Shown here in pieces: positions 6,800-47,988 of a stretch of DNA of 64,000 nucleotides; position 1 is the stretch's first letter; the number at the start of each line of letters is the position of its first letter. The DNA is from Escherichia phage Mt1B1_P17: sequence record NC_052662.1; one strand, 5' to 3'. The position numbers and the translations under genes were made by a program. Below the pieces are notes generated by a model, which was given only the letters and a program-made list of their open reading frames with translations, ran no database searches and was not told the DNA's origin.

Positions 6800-7006
6800 A
6801 ATAAAATCCTCCTAAACTTTATCTTAACATATAAAAAATAATAAGTCAAGTTTTATTCAATAGATAGCAAAAAGCCTCCAATAAGGAGGCTAATAAATAC
6901 TGTTAATTTGAAATGCTTTATTATAATTGTGCGTTAAGGAGTCGCACCCCTCCATCTTAGAAGGAACCAGGCAAGGTCTTCAAAGATACCGCTGGCAAGC
7001 GATATT

Positions 7007-7085
7007 TGGAGGCGGGAATTGGATTTGAACCAATGATCTCCAGCATATGAAACTGGCGAGGACGACCAGACTCCTCTATCCCGCT
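7007..7085 (-). tRNA. tRNA-Met (anticodon CAT; could also be Ile-lysidine or initiator)
   Basis: cloverleaf read by hand: anticodon stem CCAGT/GCTGG, loop TTCATAT, T-arm ATTGG-TTCAAAT-CCAAT, CCA encoded; position 1-72 mismatched. Confidence 0.7.
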
Positions 7086-7091
7086 ATTAGG

Positions 7092-7161
7092 TATCCCGTG
7101 CTGGATTCGAACCAGCATCACAATAAGTTGTGGAACTCTTATCCTGTAAGTCTAACGGGAA
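7092..7161 (-). tRNA. atypical tRNA-like element (possible pseudo-tRNA)
   Basis: perfect T-arm GCTGG-TTCGAAT-CCAGC and 6/7 bp acceptor stem, but only about 70 nt and no canonical anticodon arm could be folded. Confidence 0.3.
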
Positions 7162-7163
7162 AT

Positions 7164-7237
7164 TGGTTGTTTCGACAAGAATCGAACTTGTGTCTCACGA
7201 TTATCAGTCGTGGGTTCTACCATTGAACTACGAAACA
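7164..7237 (-). tRNA. tRNA-Ile (anticodon GAT)
   Basis: acceptor TGTTTCG/CGAAACA, D-arm GTTC..GAAC, anticodon stem CACGA/TCGTG with loop CTGATAA, T-loop TTCGATT, CCA encoded. Confidence 0.8.
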
Positions 7238-7243
7238 TTAAAT

Positions 7244-7320
7244 TGGTCGGAATTGCAGGATTCGAACCTGCGACCCTACGCTCCCAAAGCGTATGCTCTA
7301 CCAAACTGAGCTAAATTCCG
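7244..7320 (-). tRNA. tRNA-Pro (anticodon TGG)
   Basis: acceptor CGGAATT/AATTCCG, D-arm GCTC..GAGC, anticodon stem TACGC/GCGTA with loop TTTGGGA, T-arm GCAGG-TTCGAAT-CCTGC, CCA encoded. Confidence 0.8.
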
Positions 7321-7325
7321 TTATA

Positions 7326-7401
7326 TGGCTGGTCTGTCTGGATTTGAACCAAACCTACGACAGTCAAAGTGTCGTGTGCTACCTGACTACACTACAAACC
7401 A
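7326..7401 (-). tRNA. tRNA-Gln (anticodon TTG)
   Basis: acceptor TGGTTTG/CAGACCA (one G-U pair), anticodon stem CGACA/TGTCG with loop CTTTGAC, T-loop TTCAAAT, CCA encoded. Confidence 0.7.
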
Positions 7402-7499
7402 ATAAATCATTTAATGAAGGGCAACCAGAAGAGGTGTGAGAGAAGGAGAAAACCATGAGTAAAAGAGAAAGTTTTCTGGCAACCCTTTATTAAATAATT

Positions 7500-7573
7500 T
7501 GGAGCGTTCTACGAGGATCGAACTCGTGCCGCCGACTTGGAAGGACGGAATGCTACCGCTACACCAAGAACGC
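7500..7573 (-). tRNA. tRNA-Gly (anticodon TCC), tentative
   Basis: acceptor GCGTTCT/AGAACGC, T-arm ACGAG-TTCGATC-CTCGT, anticodon loop CTTCCAA with one T-T mismatch in the stem, CCA encoded. Confidence 0.55.
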
Positions 7574-7584
7574 CCTACCTCTTT

Positions 7585-7613
7585 ACTATACTACATTTTA
7601 CTATTGGTTGTCA
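7585..7613 (-). promoter_or_regulatory. sigma70-like promoter (TTGACA, 17 nt spacer, TATAGT) reading into the tRNA sub-cluster
   Basis: CTATTGACAA motif copy on the minus strand, about 35 nt upstream of the tRNA-Gly 5' end. Confidence 0.5.
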
Positions 7614-7887
7614 ATAGTTTTATTGAGTGGGACAGTGACGAGTATCCCATTGGGTGACTAGCCCTACGTTCGGTAAGCTAACTTAAAATAATACAAAACC
7701 AAAGTCAAATATTATTCTTCGTTGCTGTCGATGGGAGAGCCGCTTCTTCTTTTGCCCCATCCAACCCTACTCCGGTCAAGTTTCAGGTAACTCTTTTTGT
7801 GATCAACACAATACTAAGAACACTGTCTTTCGAGCAGACCTTGTGCACAGGATACGACGATCAATCACAGTGCTCTTAATGTTGTGT

Positions 7888-7962
7888 TGGTGCTCCCACT
7901 CTGAATCGAACAGAGATCCACGGATTACAAAACCGTTGTAATAGCCATTATACTATAGGAGC
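7888..7962 (-). tRNA. tRNA-Thr (anticodon TGT), tentative
   Basis: acceptor GCTCCTA/TGGGAGC, T-arm CTCTG-TTCGATT-CAGAG, anticodon loop TTTGTAA on a 4 bp stem with one U-U pair, CCA encoded. Confidence 0.5.
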
Positions 7963-7968
7963 AAAGCT

Positions 7969-8045
7969 GGGACTCGGCAGGATTCGATACCTGCAATTCC
8001 AGAAGCCTCTTGGCGACTGGGGGTTTACCTTAACTCTACAAGTCC
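7969..8045 (-). tRNA. atypical tRNA-like element with 8-nt T-loop
   Basis: 7 bp acceptor stem (GGACTTG/CGAGTCC) and T-arm GCAGG-TATCGAAT-CCTGC, but the central region folds as an extended hairpin, not a canonical anticodon arm; no CCA. Confidence 0.3.
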
Positions 8046-8052
8046 ATAATTC

Positions 8053-8138
8053 TGGCGATGAGTATAGGATTTGAACCTATATCGTTCTTTCGAACACGGA
8101 TTAACAGTCCGCCGCTTAAACCATTCAGCCAACTCATC
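8053..8138 (-). tRNA. type II (long variable arm) tRNA, anticodon loop reads GTT
   Basis: acceptor GATGAGT/ACTCATC, anticodon stem GCGGA/TCCGT with loop CTGTTAA, 15-nt variable arm hairpin GTTCGAAAGAAC, T-arm ATAGG-TTCAAAT-CCTAT, CCA encoded. Confidence 0.5.
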
Positions 8139-8144
8139 TTAATT

Positions 8145-8232
8145 TGGTGGTGAGTGATGGAGTCGAACCACCCGAATCGCAATGATAACAGATTTACAGT
8201 CTGCCCCGCTACCCCTACGGAATTAACTCACC
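8145..8232 (-). tRNA. tRNA-Tyr (anticodon GTA), type II
   Basis: acceptor GGTGAGT/ACTCACC, anticodon stem GCAGA/TCTGT with loop CTGTAAA, long variable arm, T-arm GGTGG-TTCGACT-CCATC, CCA encoded. Confidence 0.7.
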
Positions 8233-8362
8233 TAAATACTAATATTTAAATTCTTTTTAAAATAGCCAGTGTTCACACCACTAACTATGAGTTATCGGTA
8301 AGATGGTGGAGGCCATCTGCCGAAAGTTTACTCTATTAAAGTAAGCTATATTAAAAAGAACT

Positions 8363-8448
8363 TGGCGGTAGATGTAGGACTCGAACCTACACGCCGTTTC
8401 CGACTACAGTTTAGCAAACTGTCGTGGCTACCATTTCACCAATCTACC
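8363..8448 (-). tRNA. tRNA-Ser (anticodon GCT), type II
   Basis: acceptor GGTAGAT/ATCTACC, anticodon stem ACAGT/ACTGT with loop TTGCTAA, long variable arm, T-arm GTAGG-TTCGAGT-CCTAC, CCA encoded. Confidence 0.8.
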
Positions 8449-8452
8449 AATC

Positions 8453-8543
8453 TGGCGGAAGGAGGGAGAGTCGAACTCCCAAGGCTCTTTCAAGCTCGGC
8501 GGTTTTCAAGACCGTTTTCGTCGCCACGTCGATTTGCCCTTCC
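8453..8543 (-). tRNA. tRNA-Ser (anticodon TGA), type II
   Basis: acceptor GGAAGGG/TCCTTCC, anticodon loop CTTGAAA, long variable arm, T-arm GGGAG-TTCGACT-CTCCC, CCA encoded. Confidence 0.7.
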
Positions 8544-8551
8544 ATACTTAT

Positions 8552-8580
8552 AATCTAACATAAAATAATGTTAGTTGTCA
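8552..8580 (-). promoter_or_regulatory. sigma70-like promoter (TTGACA, 17 nt spacer, TAGATT) upstream of the tRNA-Ser pair
   Basis: third copy of the CTATTGACAA motif on the minus strand. Confidence 0.4.
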
Positions 8581-8777
8581 ATAGTTTTTTAAAACATTTT
8601 ACCATGAATGGTGACTCCACCAACCCCCGTTCTCAACGAACGGTGCTCTTCGAGCATTTATGTCTTCTAATATAACCGTGGCCTTTGTTTATAATGTCTG
8701 ACATACTTGCCTCATTCTCTGCCACCATGATCAGTAGTGGGTTCAAATCACTTGAGCTAATTCATGTTAAAATGTTC

Positions 8778-8852
8778 TGGTGTCTTTACAAGGAATCGAA
8801 CCTTGACTAAGAGTTTAGAAGACTCCTGTGCTATCCATTACACCATAAAGAC
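8778..8852 (-). tRNA. tRNA-Arg (anticodon TCT)
   Basis: acceptor GTCTTTA/TAAAGAC, D-arm GTGT..CAC, anticodon stem GGAGT/ACTCT with loop CTTCTAA, T-arm CAAGG-TTCGATT-CCTTG, CCA encoded. Confidence 0.8.
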
Positions 8853-8854
8853 GT

Positions 8855-8929
8855 TGGTGGCCCTGGCTGGTTTCGATCCAGCTACCTATCGGTTATGAGC
8901 CGACAGCTCTCCCATTGAGCTACAGGGCC
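8855..8929 (-). tRNA. tRNA-Met (anticodon CAT; second CAT tRNA)
   Basis: perfect acceptor GGCCCTG/CAGGGCC, D-arm GCTC..GAGC, anticodon stem GTCGG/CCGAT with loop CTCATAA, T-loop ATCGAAA, CCA encoded. Confidence 0.7.
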
Positions 8930-9133
8930 ATAAATGTGGTAACAGAGACGCTGACGATTGTAGAGAACCGCTACATTCTCTAAGACCAAGCCCAACTTTC
9001 AGCGTAAAAGTTCTTGAGCCGAGACTATTCCTTTTCCTCTTTGGTAGCTAACCTCTGAAGAAGTAGTCTCTAACACTACCGCAGTGCAAGCCCCTCTTAA
9101 CAAAAGTCAACGACCCTGTTACCACACTTGATG

Positions 9134-9167
9134 AACGTATCCTAACATATGAAGGATACGTTTGTCA
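9134..9167 (-). promoter_or_regulatory. promoter-like TTGACA box overlapping a 9-bp inverted repeat (possible operator)
   Basis: fourth CTATTGACAA copy (plus 9162..9167); downstream element is the palindrome AACGTATCC-N11-GGATACGTT (9134..9162); -10 is weak. Confidence 0.35.
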
Positions 9168-9175
9168 ATAGTTAT

Positions 9176-9490
9176 TTAAGCATATTCTGTTACTTCTTCA
9201 CTATCTTTCTTTTCTAGAAGAGCAACAACCAAAGCTTCTGCGTTAAAAGTATTAATTTCAAGATCCATCTCTCGCATCAGAGCCAAGAAATCAATAACTT
9301 TAACATCTTTAGTGATTACAATAGAAGTTGTACCATTGTTTTCAGATGTGTATTTTTCTGGATGGAAAAGAAAAACTGCATTGCCGTTACCATCTTCAAA
9401 CACGTGTTTTTCTAATAGAGACATTGTTCCTCCTAATCTGTTAGTTGTTCGTCCTCTACCAAGTTTGACACGAGAACGTCTGTTATACAT
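9176..9490 (-). CDS. hypothetical protein
   Basis: 104 aa ORF, first gene of the leftward unit upstream of the tRNA cluster. Confidence 0.5.
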   Translation of the reverse strand: MYNRRSRVKLGRGRTTNRLGGTMSLLEKHVFEDGNGNAVFLFHPEKYTSENNGTTSIVITKDVKVIDFLALMREMDLEINTFNAEALVVALLEKKDSEEVTEYA

Positions 9491-9684
9491 TGATGCTGAT
9501 AAACCCTTTCGGGACTATCATCAAAAGCCAAACCTGTGCAAATAGAACAGAGGTCTGATTCCTTGATGACTCCATTTTTATCACGTCTGGAGTGGTTTGT
9601 CAAATGCCTATTACAAGCACGGCACCTAAAATAAAAGCTATTTTGCATATATCCTTCGAACCCCAAATGGGGAGTGATCGGCAT
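9433..9684 (-). CDS. hypothetical Cys-rich protein (CxxC ... CxxC)
   Basis: 83 aa ORF overlapping the downstream ORF by 58 nt; true start may be internal. Confidence 0.3.
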   Translation of the reverse strand: MPITPHLGFEGYMQNSFYFRCRACNRHLTNHSRRDKNGVIKESDLCSICTGLAFDDSPERVYQHQCITDVLVSNLVEDEQLTD

Positions 9685-9721
9685 CTCCTCACTTCTAGTT
9701 TAGCACGAAGGATATCTTAAG

Positions 9722-9907
9722 TCAACTAGGAATAATTTTATCCTTTTTGGTTTCATAACCAGTCCAATCTAAATCCTCCCAGCCTTCATCATCGTCTAAC
9801 ACATTGTCATCATCATAAGATGCAATGTTATAAATAGAACGTGGATTACAAGACATACAATCTTTAATAGGCACATGATGCCATTTGCACGGATTCTCGC
9901 TAATCAT
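9722..9907 (-). CDS. hypothetical small Cys-containing protein
   Basis: 61 aa ORF; a TATAAATA box (plus tatttata at about 9972..9979) lies about 65 nt upstream on the minus strand. Confidence 0.45.
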   Translation of the reverse strand: MISENPCKWHHVPIKDCMSCNPRSIYNIASYDDDNVLDDDEGWEDLDWTGYETKKDKIIPS

Positions 9908-9949
9908 TGCACACCTCCATTCTTGTTAAGATGTTCCGTACTGTACTTC

Positions 9950-10140
9950 ATACTGATCTATAGATCAAGTATTATTTATAATAATTTATTATTTTATTTT
10001 TAATTGATAGAAGTTGATCTGTACGTACCAGTTCTGATACACTGTACCTGTTTGTTAGATCTAATAATTATTTATTATTAATATTTAATAATTATTAATC
10101 TAGTACAGAGTACAGTACTTGAGTACAGAGTACTACATCA
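9950..10140. repeat. AT-rich divergent intergenic region with palindromes and short direct repeats
   Basis: palindrome TGATCTATAGATCA, a roughly 45-bp AT-rich imperfect inverted repeat centred near 10075, and AGTACAG x3 with AGTACT palindromes at 10101..10135. Confidence 0.5.
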
Positions 10141-10388
10141 ACAACCTAAAACCTTAACTCGCTGCGCTCGTTAATAGATTTCTAGGGTAGCATACTTCGA
10201 ACACAAAAGTCAAGAGTTTTATTAAAAATTATTTTCTGTGTGCAAAAACCTTGCTTAAACAGGTAGCAATAGTATATCCTATAACATAAGCTTCATAAGA
10301 GGCTCGTAGAGCAAGTTCACTTACTAGGTAAGGTGATTTATCATCTTATATATAAAAAGTGCGTCAGAGACGCGTTTAGGAGGCTAGA

Positions 10389-10712
10389 ATGAGATTTACA
10401 AGACAAGAGGTAGTTGTGCTGGACGAAGCAATGACAATGATCGTCTTTTACTATGAGGATATCTTCTGTGCAGCATATCATTTAAATGACATTCAGATTG
10501 AATGGCAGCAGATAGCATTCCTGTTGGACAAGAGTAATCATTTGGATGGTTTTGAGTATTTGGAGTGGGATGGTGCAAAGGAAGTTAAAATTGTAGGGTT
10601 AAATCACGATCAGATTGTTGACATGCAATGTAAGTTGTGTCATTATCAGTTCTCAAACAAAGTCAAACTCGAAAGGCAATTGGAGGTGGTTAAAGATGAT
10701 AGCACTAATTAG
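10389..10712 (+). CDS. hypothetical protein
   Basis: 107 aa; RBS AGGAGG before the ATG; first gene of the rightward block. Confidence 0.55.
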   Translation: MRFTRQEVVVLDEAMTMIVFYYEDIFCAAYHLNDIQIEWQQIAFLLDKSNHLDGFEYLEWDGAKEVKIVGLNHDQIVDMQCKLCHYQFSNKVKLERQLEVVKDDSTN

Positions 10713-10812
10713 TGAGAATCCAGTCCTGACAACAATTGTTCTGATTTTTGCCATGTGTGTGGTTCACGATATTCTGGTAAGTTATTTTGACAACAAAGGA
10801 GGTAAGAAATGA
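10696..10812 (+). CDS. small hydrophobic protein (38 aa)
   Basis: internal ATG of track ORF 10615..10812, preceded by GGAGGTGG; single predicted transmembrane helix. Confidence 0.35.
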   Translation: MIALISENPVLTTIVLIFAMCVVHDILVSYFDNKGGKK

Positions 10813-11003
10813 AAGACGTTATTCAAATGGTATTCCGTGTAACTCTAGATGGTATACACGTTGTTAAAGGCACACAGAACTACACAGAAGCGAAAGAACA
10901 CTTCTTAGAGTGGATTGATACACTGAAGACACAAGATGTGTCCTACAGCCGTGTTACGCTTACTGGCGACCATACCCCAATCATGGAGTACGTAAAGAAA
11001 TGA
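10809..11003 (+). CDS. hypothetical protein
   Basis: 64 aa, start overlaps upstream stop, RBS AAGGAGG. Confidence 0.5.
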   Translation: MKDVIQMVFRVTLDGIHVVKGTQNYTEAKEHFLEWIDTLKTQDVSYSRVTLTGDHTPIMEYVKK

Positions 11004-11239
11004 GCAACTATCCAATTACAGGCGTAACCTATTCTTGTGTAGCAAAAGGTGGTTTATATACAGTAGTGGAATTTCCAAAACCTGCCGGAATATCTAAAGT
11101 GTTTGATCCTGTGGTTATCTATGAAGATCTTAGAACAGGTCAACGTTACTGGAGATTTGTGAATGACTTTTTAGATCGTATGGAGGTAGTAAGTGGCGAA
11201 AACACCGAAGAAGTTATCAAAGCCAAAGAACGTTACTAA
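11000..11239 (+). CDS. hypothetical protein
   Basis: 79 aa, start/stop overlap with upstream gene. Confidence 0.5.
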   Translation: MSNYPITGVTYSCVAKGGLYTVVEFPKPAGISKVFDPVVIYEDLRTGQRYWRFVNDFLDRMEVVSGENTEEVIKAKERY

Positions 11240-11546
11240 GAAACCGAAAAACGAGGTTCTCAAAGTAGCTAAATCAGTTCCTAAGAAAGATAAATTTGAT
11301 ACGGAGGCATTCGTCTTTGACACACCAATCGAGAAGATTGAAGAAGCGTTGCAACGTCTTGAGGAGCAGGAGGCAGATCCAATGGCTGAACCACTCACGG
11401 CAGACCAAATTTATTGGTGGGGAATATGGATTTTGCAACTACCAGAAGCAAAAAGAAGAGGGATGACTTCAGTTCCTACTTGTGCAAAAGAAGCGGCTGT
11501 GTTAGGTTTGTATGAGAAATCTAAAAAGAGGAGCAAAAAGAAATGA
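11193..11546 (+). CDS. hypothetical lysine-rich protein
   Basis: 117 aa, GTG start after GGAGG; N-terminus KKxxKPK repeats (histone-like basic tail). Confidence 0.45.
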   Translation: MAKTPKKLSKPKNVTKKPKNEVLKVAKSVPKKDKFDTEAFVFDTPIEKIEEALQRLEEQEADPMAEPLTADQIYWWGIWILQLPEAKRRGMTSVPTCAKEAAVLGLYEKSKKRSKKK

Positions 11547-12683: not shown

Positions 12684-13040
12684 ATGGGTACTATTATTTG
12701 GCTTGATGATTTACGTGATCCAAAAGATTATGGTTGTCCAGATGCAATCTGGTTTAAAACATCACAGGAACTTCTTGCCTCTCGCTACATGAATGAGGTG
12801 CAGAAGGGTTATCGTTTTGTAGACGAGTGGCATTTTGACAACGATTTGGGTGAAGATTCTGACCAAGATGGGTATGATGTTTTCCTGTGCCTGGAAGAAC
12901 TTCTGGCGTTTGGTAAACCTTGCTTTGGTTCACCTACCATTTTCGTGCATACTTCTAATCCCGCCGCTGGGGATAAATTCATGCTTGCAAAAGAATCCAT
13001 GCTGCGTTATGGTATTAAAATGATTCGTGTGCACTACTAA
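12684..13040 (+). CDS. hypothetical protein
   Basis: 118 aa, RBS GAGGAGG. Confidence 0.55.
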   Translation: MGTIIWLDDLRDPKDYGCPDAIWFKTSQELLASRYMNEVQKGYRFVDEWHFDNDLGEDSDQDGYDVFLCLEELLAFGKPCFGSPTIFVHTSNPAAGDKFMLAKESMLRYGIKMIRVHY

Positions 13041-47709: not shown

Positions 47710-47829
47710 TCTTCCTCCTGTTCGGTATTATTCACCTGTGAGACACAATGTAACACAAGCTTTGTGAGTTTGTCAAGGATCTAATTACATTCTACAGAAG
47801 AAGAGGGTTAATAACTATAGGAATAGTCT

Positions 47830-47900
47830 TACTATAGGTGCAATACTAGTTAAGACTTAGATTGATAGGTAAGACTTATCTTAAACAGATAATTGATAGG
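47830..47900. repeat. short direct repeats in an intergenic region
   Basis: ATTGATAGGT at 47861 and 47891, TAAGACTTA at 47851 and 47871, related CTATAGGT at 47832. Confidence 0.45.
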
Positions 47901-47988
47901 TGAATCAGCATTGACTTTTTCAAAAAAATATGGTACCCTAAACATATGTTTACGAGCGATAGCGAGTAGTAGATTTCTATATAATAAT

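Follow-up and report, generated by a model that had tools for sequence, protein, structure and literature searches.

Escherichia phage Mt1B1_P17 (sequence record NC_052662.1) carries, within the 64,000-nucleotide window analyzed here, a gene-free gap from which a leftward and a rightward block of genes diverge. Judged by its predicted promoters and their conservation in related phages, this gap is probably a conserved transcription control region, that is, a hub of σ70-dependent promoters placed where the two gene blocks part. The hub would comprise divergent and convergent promoters with a shared AT-rich upstream tract; in the phAPEC8 lineage, an AT-centered palindrome with GTAC-containing arms is added to it. 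As a kind of feature, the junction is ordinary; its noteworthy parts are a promoter-plus-mini-hairpin unit present in three copies per genome, the presence of the same unit in islands of enterobacterial chromosomes, and a cluster of GTAC sites. Positions refer to the window unless another genome is named, and the features are collected in Table 1.

Promoters were searched with a σ70 position weight matrix (PWM) that included a spacer penalty and a bonus for extended –10 elements and was applied to 127,930 positions of the window. The three best sites of the gap, P_L2, P_R1, and P_L1, all belong to the top 0.07% of these positions, and a fourth candidate, P_R3, is found just upstream of the first rightward gene. 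The matrix is informative for promoters in this genome: 18 of the 19 window sites scoring at least 13 share their direction with the local genes. Sites of the σ70 type occupy orthologous positions in six diverged genomes, in which the hexamers and their spacing are kept and the spacer sequences differ, and all four promoters have such counterparts in most other genomes compared. The orthologues of P_L1 (TTGAC(T/C)-17/18-TAxAxT) score 11.5–12.5 in phiWec188, phi92, KKP3264, FKP3, and Tr1, those of P_R1 reach 9.2–10.3 in other genera, and those of P_L2 11.3–12.8 across all relatives, while P_R3 corresponds to TTGACA-17-TATCAT in FKP3 and TTGACT-17-TACCAT in Tr1. The –35 hexamer of P_R1 and the –10 hexamer of P_L2 are separated by 133–140 bp in four other lineages versus 170 bp here. 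At the equivalent junction of the related phage rV5, bidirectional promoters have been described (PMC3606486).

A preliminary description of this region had noted a palindrome, an AT-rich inverted repeat of roughly 45 bp, AGTACAG repeats interleaved with AGTACT palindromes, and a leftward TATAAATA box, and had proposed either a replication origin or a cluster of divergent promoters. These observations are confirmed. The palindrome TGATCTATAGATCA and the TATAAATA box are present, and the imperfect repeat has arms at 10062–10079 and 10080–10097, which are 89% complementary, and reaches from about 10056 to 10102. The three AGTACAG copies (10102, 10109, and 10122) and the two AGTACT sites (10114 and 10129) were found as well, with two amendments: a fourth AGTACAG lies on the minus strand at 9941–9947, and the copy at 10102 is variable, being AGTACGG or another variant in all eight aligned relatives. 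Because the matrix sites coincide with these motifs, the leftmost AGTACAG can be read as the –10 element of P_L1; CACTGTAC forms the –10/+1 region of P_R1, and the right half of TGATCTATAGATCA the –35 element of P_L1. This right half, ATAGATCAAG, is invariant among the eight aligned relatives, whereas the left half has changed in three or more different ways. The leftmost motif is altered in BI-EHEC and KKP3954 such that TACAGT becomes TACAAT, a better –10 element for P_L1. Of the two proposed functions, the promoter cluster is thus well supported by the orthologous σ70-type sites in six diverged genomes; the origin is the less likely of the two.

Table 1. Features of the divergent junction and of the related units elsewhere in the genome.
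Feature	Position	Strand	Description
Gene-free control region	9908..10388	.	481 bp; delimited by the open reading frame list, the anhysbys and ESCO13 annotations, and tRNAs
P_L1	9968..9940	–	–35 TTGATC (9968–9963), 17-bp spacer, –10 TACAGT (9945–9940); PWM 9.7, top 0.064%
Palindrome TGATCTATAGATCA	9954..9967	.	right half overlaps the P_L1 –35; left half not conserved
AT tract A	9969..10013	.	45 bp, 91% A+T; between the back-to-back –35 hexamers of P_L1 and P_R1
TATAAATA match	9973..9980	–	chance occurrence in AT tract; 6 in window versus 4.5 expected
P_R1	10014..10043	+	TTGATC, 18-bp spacer, TGA-TACACT (extended –10); PWM 10.9, top 0.034%
76-bp AT-centered palindrome	10041..10116	.	inner part 10056–10102 is the 45-bp repeat described before; outer arms ACTGTACCTGT, ACAGAGTACAGT
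GTACAG/AGTACT repeat block	10102..10134	+	12-mer AGTACAGAGTAC twice, 20 nt apart; mirror copies on other strand at 9941, 10019, 10042
Unit A (P_L2)	10158..10213	–	TTGACT-18-TGC-TACCCT, short palindrome at about +1, box CGAGCGCAGCGAG (core GCGCAGC)
P_L2 (promoter of unit A)	10213..10184	–	TTGACT-18-TGC-TACCCT; PWM 11.3, top 0.026%
P_R3	10316..10344	+	TTCACT, 17-bp spacer, TATCAT; PWM 8.6; just upstream of first rightward gene
5′-UTR stem-loop	10361..10373	+	GCGTC-aga-GACGC; just 5′ of ribosome-binding site AGGAGG of first rightward gene
Unit B	47911..47966	+	TTGACT-17-TGG-TACCCTAAA-N10-CGAGCGATAGCGAG; antisense in 360-bp gap of minus-strand block
Unit C	ESCO13 129,854..129,799	–	third copy; 115 nt upstream of same-strand gene

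Based on this arrangement, we propose that P_L1 and P_R1 work back to back, P_L1 leftward into three small open reading frames (ORFs) and a tRNA cluster and P_R1 rightward, with AT tract A possibly serving both as a shared UP-like upstream element. A GGAGG ribosome-binding site lies 7 nt 5′ of the ATG of the first leftward ORF and about 26 nt from the predicted P_L1 start. P_L2 would fire leftward and face P_R1; the predicted starts of these two promoters, at about 10177 and 10050, respectively, are about 127 bp apart. The first rightward gene could be served by P_R3 together with a conserved hairpin in its 5′ untranslated region (UTR). This stem is kept with other sequences in phi92 (GCTC-gttaca-GAGC) and Tr1 (GCTC-acaga-GAGC) and contains a G-T pair in phiWec188. 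The same stem-loop also reads as a terminator-like site on the minus strand.

For the close comparison we used nine core Phapecoctavirus genomes. Among these, positions 10144–10388 and the inner AT palindrome are near-invariant, and variation is greatest in the AGTACAG/AGTACT block. A subgroup that has diverged within the genus (phiWec188, phiWec179, and phiWec190) matches at the DNA level only from 10148 rightward. Homologues of the first rightward gene are encoded by phi92-like phages (Justusliebigvirus), Klebsiella phage FKP3, and Citrobacter phage Tr1, in each case as the first gene of a divergent junction. These junctions share one layout: a leftward TTGAC(T/C) box is followed by an AT tract of 43–57 bp with 82–95% A+T, which occupies the same place in all genera, then by a rightward TTGxxA box with TAGTAT or TATAGT 17 bp downstream, by about 100 bp of variable sequence holding a conserved TGTCTGTTAGATCT, and by an invariant block of the form CTCGCTKCGCTCG-N12–15-TTAGGGTAGCATA-N-GTCAA. 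The length of tract A also varies among the nine core genomes. Tract A is the most easily melted DNA nearby; 40-mers with at least 97.5% A+T occur only in tract A and in the AT palindrome in the whole window, namely at 9970 and at 10059–10063.

Several points weigh against a promoter hub as the full account of the region. The literature searched yielded neither transcript nor replication mapping for the subfamily, so the promoters are well-supported predictions. A simple consensus scan counted 3 promoter-like sites versus 4.2 expected from shuffled sequences, and in this phage the –35 hexamers of P_L1 and P_R1 (TTGATC) depart from the consensus. At the other divergent junction of the genome, the promoters overlap without an AT tract; such a tract does not, therefore, simply arise with divergence, which does not in itself give its purpose. 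Finally, promoter function alone leaves the palindrome and the GTAC cluster unexplained; GTAC is strongly avoided elsewhere in the genome and is kept here in most isolates.

Some further candidate signals did not hold. The TATAAATA match was considered as a T4-type late promoter and rejected, since the matches are scattered over both strands of the window in a number close to expectation. Likewise, the four GATC sites within 107 bp were dismissed as a SeqA/Dam signature: denser clusters exist elsewhere in the window, and relatives carry one to five sites. A BoxA/nut-like reading of CGCTCGTTAA, made by eye, was dropped because its TTAA part is not kept in phi92, FKP3, and Tr1. No LexA boxes were seen by eye.

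P_L2 is part of a larger composite unit with the structure TTGAC(T/A)-N15-TGn-TACCCT-A(A/G)N-short palindrome-CGAGCG-(N1–2)-AGCGAG. This unit is conserved across the genera of the Stephanstirmvirinae and occurs in exactly three copies per genome, also in each of three complete IMG/VR genomes (149–153 kb). Upstream of unit A, whose block is invariant among the diverged relatives aligned, lies an A/T-rich UP-like tract (10214–10240). Unit B is the only conserved island of an otherwise diverged gap in Justusliebigvirus and Tr1. Two copies head ordinary operons, namely unit C and, in EmilieFrey, unit B. Direct repeats (TTAAGACTTAGATTGATAGGTAAGACTTA and ATAATTGATAGGTGAATC) are found upstream of unit B at 47780–47905. 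We also came across an unrelated environmental viral family of about 20 IMG/VR contigs in which CTATACCCTATCCCCCCCAACGAGCGAAGCGAGTGGG occurs twice in inverted orientation at a distance of about 100 bp; in one contig, this pair (2020–2165) is located upstream of a terminase gene and a gene for an SU10-type portal.

Two parts of the unit point to a structured nucleic acid. The start-site palindrome is centered 6–8 nt past the –10 element, at the predicted start, and differs in sequence between copies (TAAACA/TGTTTA, ACCT-gaa-AGGT, ACCC-cgaa-GGGT, CAC-gaa-GTG, and others); the summed length of the best stems is 51 versus 36.7 ± 2.8 in shuffled sequences. The center of the downstream box varies as well (C, A, AT, GG, or TA), and every copy fits GCGNAGC or GCGNNAGC, with the cores GCGCAGC, GCGAAGC, GCGATAGC, GCGGGAGC, and GCGTAAGC. 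These two patterns define "mini-hairpin DNA," which is known from the primase start sites of G4, St-1, and alpha3, from RSF1010 ssiA, and from the promoters of the N4 virion polymerase (PMC13037366). Nearest-neighbor folding of the units is not better than that of shuffled sequences (z between –1.35 and +0.6); we assume that the parameters used probably miss the special stability of G-A mini-hairpins. Taken alone, the 7–8 nt motif GCGN(1–2)AGC is not enriched in the window (21 versus 19.9 expected).

A scan of bacterial genomes revealed the full unit in the chromosomes of Citrobacter sp. OP27, two Buttiauxella metagenome-assembled genomes, and one Scandinavium metagenome-assembled genome; it is also present in one 22.8-kb IMG/VR contig. 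In Citrobacter sp. OP27, the only locus at which we read the gene content of the island, the unit marks the edge of an island: it directly follows the gene for a tyrosine integrase, a DUF5906 protein is also encoded by the island, and chromosomal genes for LysE and an amidase lie on the other side. In all five of these sequences, the unit is followed by a conserved non-coding leader of more than 170 nt, whose hairpin stems (TCTCCTGAAAGGAGA, TATCCCGAAGGGATA, and TCTCTCGAAGAGAGA) are kept by compensatory changes. This distribution shows that the unit is a mobile, reusable module, whether as a replication signal or as a promoter followed by a structured leader. The island may be a phage satellite with a helper-like signal.

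The part of the junction specific to Mt1B1_P17 and its closest relatives is bounded by two conserved elements, the TGTCTGTTAGATCT block and the box of unit A. Here, the 76-bp palindrome and the right-hand AGTACAG copies are found only in the core phAPEC8 lineage and have no counterpart in the aligned sequences of phiWec188, phi92, FKP3, and Tr1. As DNA, the palindrome folds markedly better than shuffled sequences (z = –4.1 for 10054–10104; z = –4.4 for 10040–10145, with none of 200 shuffles as good). Because it is located between the convergent P_R1 and P_L2, it would be transcribed from both sides, and RNA from either promoter could form a long A-U hairpin. The most likely role of palindrome and repeats would be to modulate the P_R1 and P_L2 transcripts, either through a hairpin in RNA or DNA or through a protein site specific to the lineage.

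The repeats stand out by their GTAC core. GTAC is rare: its 59 copies in 64 kb compare with an expectation of about 180 under a Markov model and of 224 under base composition. Of these copies, ten fall within 9938–10133, and every other 200-bp window contains at most three. The count of AGTACAG in the window (6) is close to the expected 6.3, with four of the six within 188 bp. For GTACAG, 6 of the 11 window copies are located within 200 bp and in dyad-symmetric order around the palindrome center, facing left at 9941, 10019, and 10042 and right at 10103, 10110, and 10123. Such symmetry resembles that of an operator array or of an origin flanked by binding sites; close relatives, however, show drift in the array. 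Changes affect 7 of the 10 junction GTAC sites in BI-EHEC, those of the repeat block mostly to GTAT or ATAC. Elsewhere in this genome (38 kb compared; overall divergence 1.2%), half of 16 GTAC sites are lost, usually by a change to GTAT; the BI-EHEC lineage is purging GTAC genome-wide. Any function of the region therefore tolerates GTAT. The depletion itself extends across the genome, where GTAC reaches 0.24–0.44 of the Markov expectation in the window, the rest of ESCO13, and BI-EHEC; CCGG, GGCC, and CTAG are depleted genome-wide, too, and GATC is not. GTAC loss suggests active selection or a mutational process at this sequence.

Two alternatives to a modulating hairpin or protein site have to be weighed for this insert. 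The six GTACAG copies could be an operator array for a phage DNA-binding protein that switches P_L1, P_R1, and read-through from P_L2 during infection. The clustering and symmetry of the copies around the AT palindrome would fit such an array, as would the overlap of two of them with the –10 or +1 regions of P_L1 and P_R1, the 20-nt spacing of the 12-mer, which is about two helical turns, and the retention of GTAC here in a genome in which it is otherwise depleted three- to fourfold. We nevertheless regard an operator array as rather unlikely, given that it is missing from sister lineages with the same promoters, represents the most variable segment of the region among close relatives, and has lost most of its GTAC sites in BI-EHEC, and that none of the ten flanking proteins has a detected DNA-binding domain. 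Palindrome and right-hand repeats might instead have no function of their own: part of the P_L1 region would have been duplicated in inverted orientation, with additional slippage in low-complexity AT DNA, and the result tolerated in a long leader. Such a derivation would agree with the resemblance between the reverse complement of the P_L1 region (GATCAGTATGAAGTACAGTAC) and positions 10097–10118 (AATCTAGTACAGAGTACAGTAC), the 72% identity of 9955–9993 with 10058–10096, the restriction of the insert to one lineage, the drift of the repeats in relatives, and the variable length of tract A. What makes it doubtful is that the inner palindrome is nearly unchanged in the nine core genomes while adjacent bases vary, and that ten GTAC sites persist in non-coding DNA of a genome that purges them.

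The other proposal to be considered is a replication origin. A GC-skew analysis, suggested as a check for it, does place the cumulative minimum at about 10 kb, but its sign goes with the coding strand in each of the eight gene blocks, so the skew cannot locate an origin. The same dependence on the coding strand has been reported for rV5 (PMC3606486). Apart from one relaxed match at 10239, no DnaA boxes were found in the region, nor a match to the IHF consensus or conserved iterons; the sole direct repeat is the duplicated 12-mer, which varies among relatives. No initiator gene is recognizable among the ten flanking proteins, and the polymerase and primase-helicase genes are more than 40 kb away from the junction. 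The palindrome and the AGTACAG repeats, taken as origin marks in the preliminary description, are lineage-specific and variable. An AT-rich element of the unwinding type is present in the form of the two AT tracts, and the start of unit A lies 75–120 bp from the AT palindrome and 165–210 bp from tract A in a layout kept across genera.

It is this last arrangement that would allow the junction to be, in addition, a transcription-primed origin of the kind known from T7 phi1.1A/B, T4 oriF/oriG, and ColE1. RNA from P_L2 would enter the AT-rich DNA, persist as an R-loop, and prime the leading strand; on the displaced strand, the start-site palindrome and the GCGNAGC mini-hairpin would hold the loop open or load a T7-gp4-like primase-helicase, and units B and C would be further origins. 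We consider such an origin unlikely, even though the promoter-plus-mini-hairpin unit lends it some circumstantial support. P_L2 is aimed at the two most AT-rich 40-mer sites of the window, and the distance from unit A to the AT tract is conserved across genera. Unit B lies in a gene-free gap, is oriented antisense, and has no evident mRNA to serve, a situation for which T7 phiOL/phiOR offer a comparison. Among its replication proteins, the phage has a primase/helicase and a DNA polymerase but no recognized initiator. The sequence CCGAGCGCAGCGAG presumably also occurs in pBR322, a couple of hundred bases past the origin and near the PriA-dependent ssiA, which would be a tentative link. The box core of every copy fits the mini-hairpin patterns found at the primase starts of G4, St-1, and alpha3 and at RSF1010 ssiA (PMC13037366), and in ColE1 an ssi site downstream of the primer promoter is exposed on the displaced strand (PMC3167613). 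On the other side, no extreme AT tract follows units B and C, and unit C as well as unit B of EmilieFrey lie directly upstream of same-strand genes, like ordinary promoters. Moreover, the units fold no better than shuffled sequences, their core motif is not enriched, and the GC skew is uninformative. In its widest form, the three units would be the transcription-primed origins of the Stephanstirmvirinae (unit A at the junction, unit B at 47.9 kb, and unit C close to the replication genes). Host RNA polymerase would start within a small palindrome, GNA-loop mini-hairpins on the displaced strand would hold the R-loops and load the phage primase-helicase, and the junction AT tract would be the unwinding element; the integrase/primase islands of Citrobacter, Buttiauxella, and Scandinavium would be satellites with a copied signal, fired by or with such phages. 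This extended scheme is quite improbable.

We also considered, and rejected, the junction as genome terminus or packaging site. The phi92-like phage BME3 has terminal repeats of 342 bp (PMC12210895), which are located in another non-coding region of about 1.5 kb; its equivalent in ESCO13 is found at 137.9–139.1 kb. This terminal-repeat region (BME3 1–1480) contains several Fur-box-like sequences, for example, GATAATGATTATCATTTGCAT and AATGATAATCATTCTCATT, and in ESCO13 also repeated AAAATTTAAAGTTT motifs. Packaging or replication signals could alternatively reside there.

The window belongs to the genus Phapecoctavirus, phAPEC8-like virulent myophages of Escherichia coli in the subfamily Stephanstirmvirinae with genomes of about 150 kb, and 69 phage records match positions 9000–11500 with up to 99.8% identity. 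Records named after Campylobacter, Acinetobacter, Pseudomonas, and Klebsiella phages (B15, ABPW7, PsgM04F, and ZCKP1) match the region at 84–99%, with PsgM04F at the low end; their host labels deserve caution. Both ends of the record of phage nieznany (MN850598.1) fall inside the junction and overlap, differing by a deletion of 68 bp (9976–10042), probably due to an assembly break in AT-rich palindromic DNA. Since the full sequence is present at the other end, the deletion is an assembly artifact or population heterogeneity, and we rejected it as a sign of a dispensable P_R1.

Genome-wide, there are four strand switches (ESCO13 coordinates), and the junction is one of the two divergent ones. 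To its left, all features are on the minus strand: a 61-amino acid ORF (9722–9907), two further small ORFs, the tRNA cluster (7010–8929), and then the structural genes. To its right, a plus-strand series of small ORFs without known function, which we label as early genes, begins at 10389. The gap had been estimated at about 430 bp; the absence of ORFs holds, and the length is revised to the value in Table 1. It carries no feature annotation in the Phapecoctavirus records examined (anhysbys and ESCO13), and neither the gap nor unit B nor the island leader matches an Rfam family. The ten flanking proteins have no Pfam or PHROG function tied to replication or DNA binding, and a search of IMG/VR proteins with the first rightward gene gave no matches. 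Further to the right, positions 12684–13037 (plus strand) encode a 118-amino acid protein with a cREC_REC domain (cyclic-phosphate-processing receiver). Its gene, downstream of the junction's tRNA cluster side, is located upstream of genes annotated in relatives as metallophosphatase and RNA ligase; together they look like an RNA-repair module. Behind the last tRNA, a sub-threshold Rfam match to RyhB (6866–6920, minus strand; 29.4 bits versus a threshold of 55 bits) was rejected, as the alignment is essentially the terminator hairpin AGCCTCC...GGAGGCTTTTT.

Phapecoctaviruses are used in phage-therapy cocktails, and the region is unannotated in the records examined. A promoter map of their main divergence point makes the start sites of early transcription and the expression of the tRNA cluster testable. 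The three-copy unit, kept across genera and in integrase-bearing islands, is a candidate for a special regulatory or replication signal, and its sharing with the islands is a possible clue to the relations between phages and satellites. Likewise, a GTAC cluster in a GTAC-purging genome, with one lineage losing the sites, represents a natural experiment on restriction avoidance versus functional constraint.

The junction resembles several known systems in some respects. With the primary origin of T7 (phi1.1A/B and an AT-rich region), T4 oriF/oriG (a middle promoter and an unwinding element), and ColE1 (RNA II and ssiA), it shares a promoter directed into a meltable AT segment and a hairpin-prone sequence on the would-be displaced strand, combined here with a T7-like primase-helicase and no recognized initiator. 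It differs in that its promoter is of the host σ70 type and that the other two copies of the unit lack an AT segment and at least one heads an ordinary operon. The box CGAGCG-(N1–2)-AGCGAG holds the mini-hairpin motif in every copy and is preceded by a second short hairpin, often with a GAA loop; unlike at the sites of G4, St-1, alpha3, RSF1010, and N4, the motif is located 15–28 nt downstream of a σ70-type –10 element in double-stranded DNA, and the hairpin is a predicted one. Face-to-face promoter switches are known from temperate phages, namely pR/pL of 186 and Pe/Pc of P2. As in these switches, P_R1 and P_L2 would form a pair firing face to face, with about 95–130 bp between them and conserved spacing; in contrast to 186 and P2, Mt1B1_P17 is virulent, and no repressor or lysogeny genes adjoin the region. 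The promoter hub further resembles the region at genes 10/11 of rV5, also a large virulent coliphage with back-to-back host-type promoters where gene blocks diverge, many of them with extended –10 elements, and with switches of GC and AT skew that coincide with those of transcription (PMC3606486). To the arrangement described for rV5, the junction of Mt1B1_P17 adds a 45-bp tract with 91% A+T, a third promoter firing back, and a lineage-specific palindrome of 76 bp.

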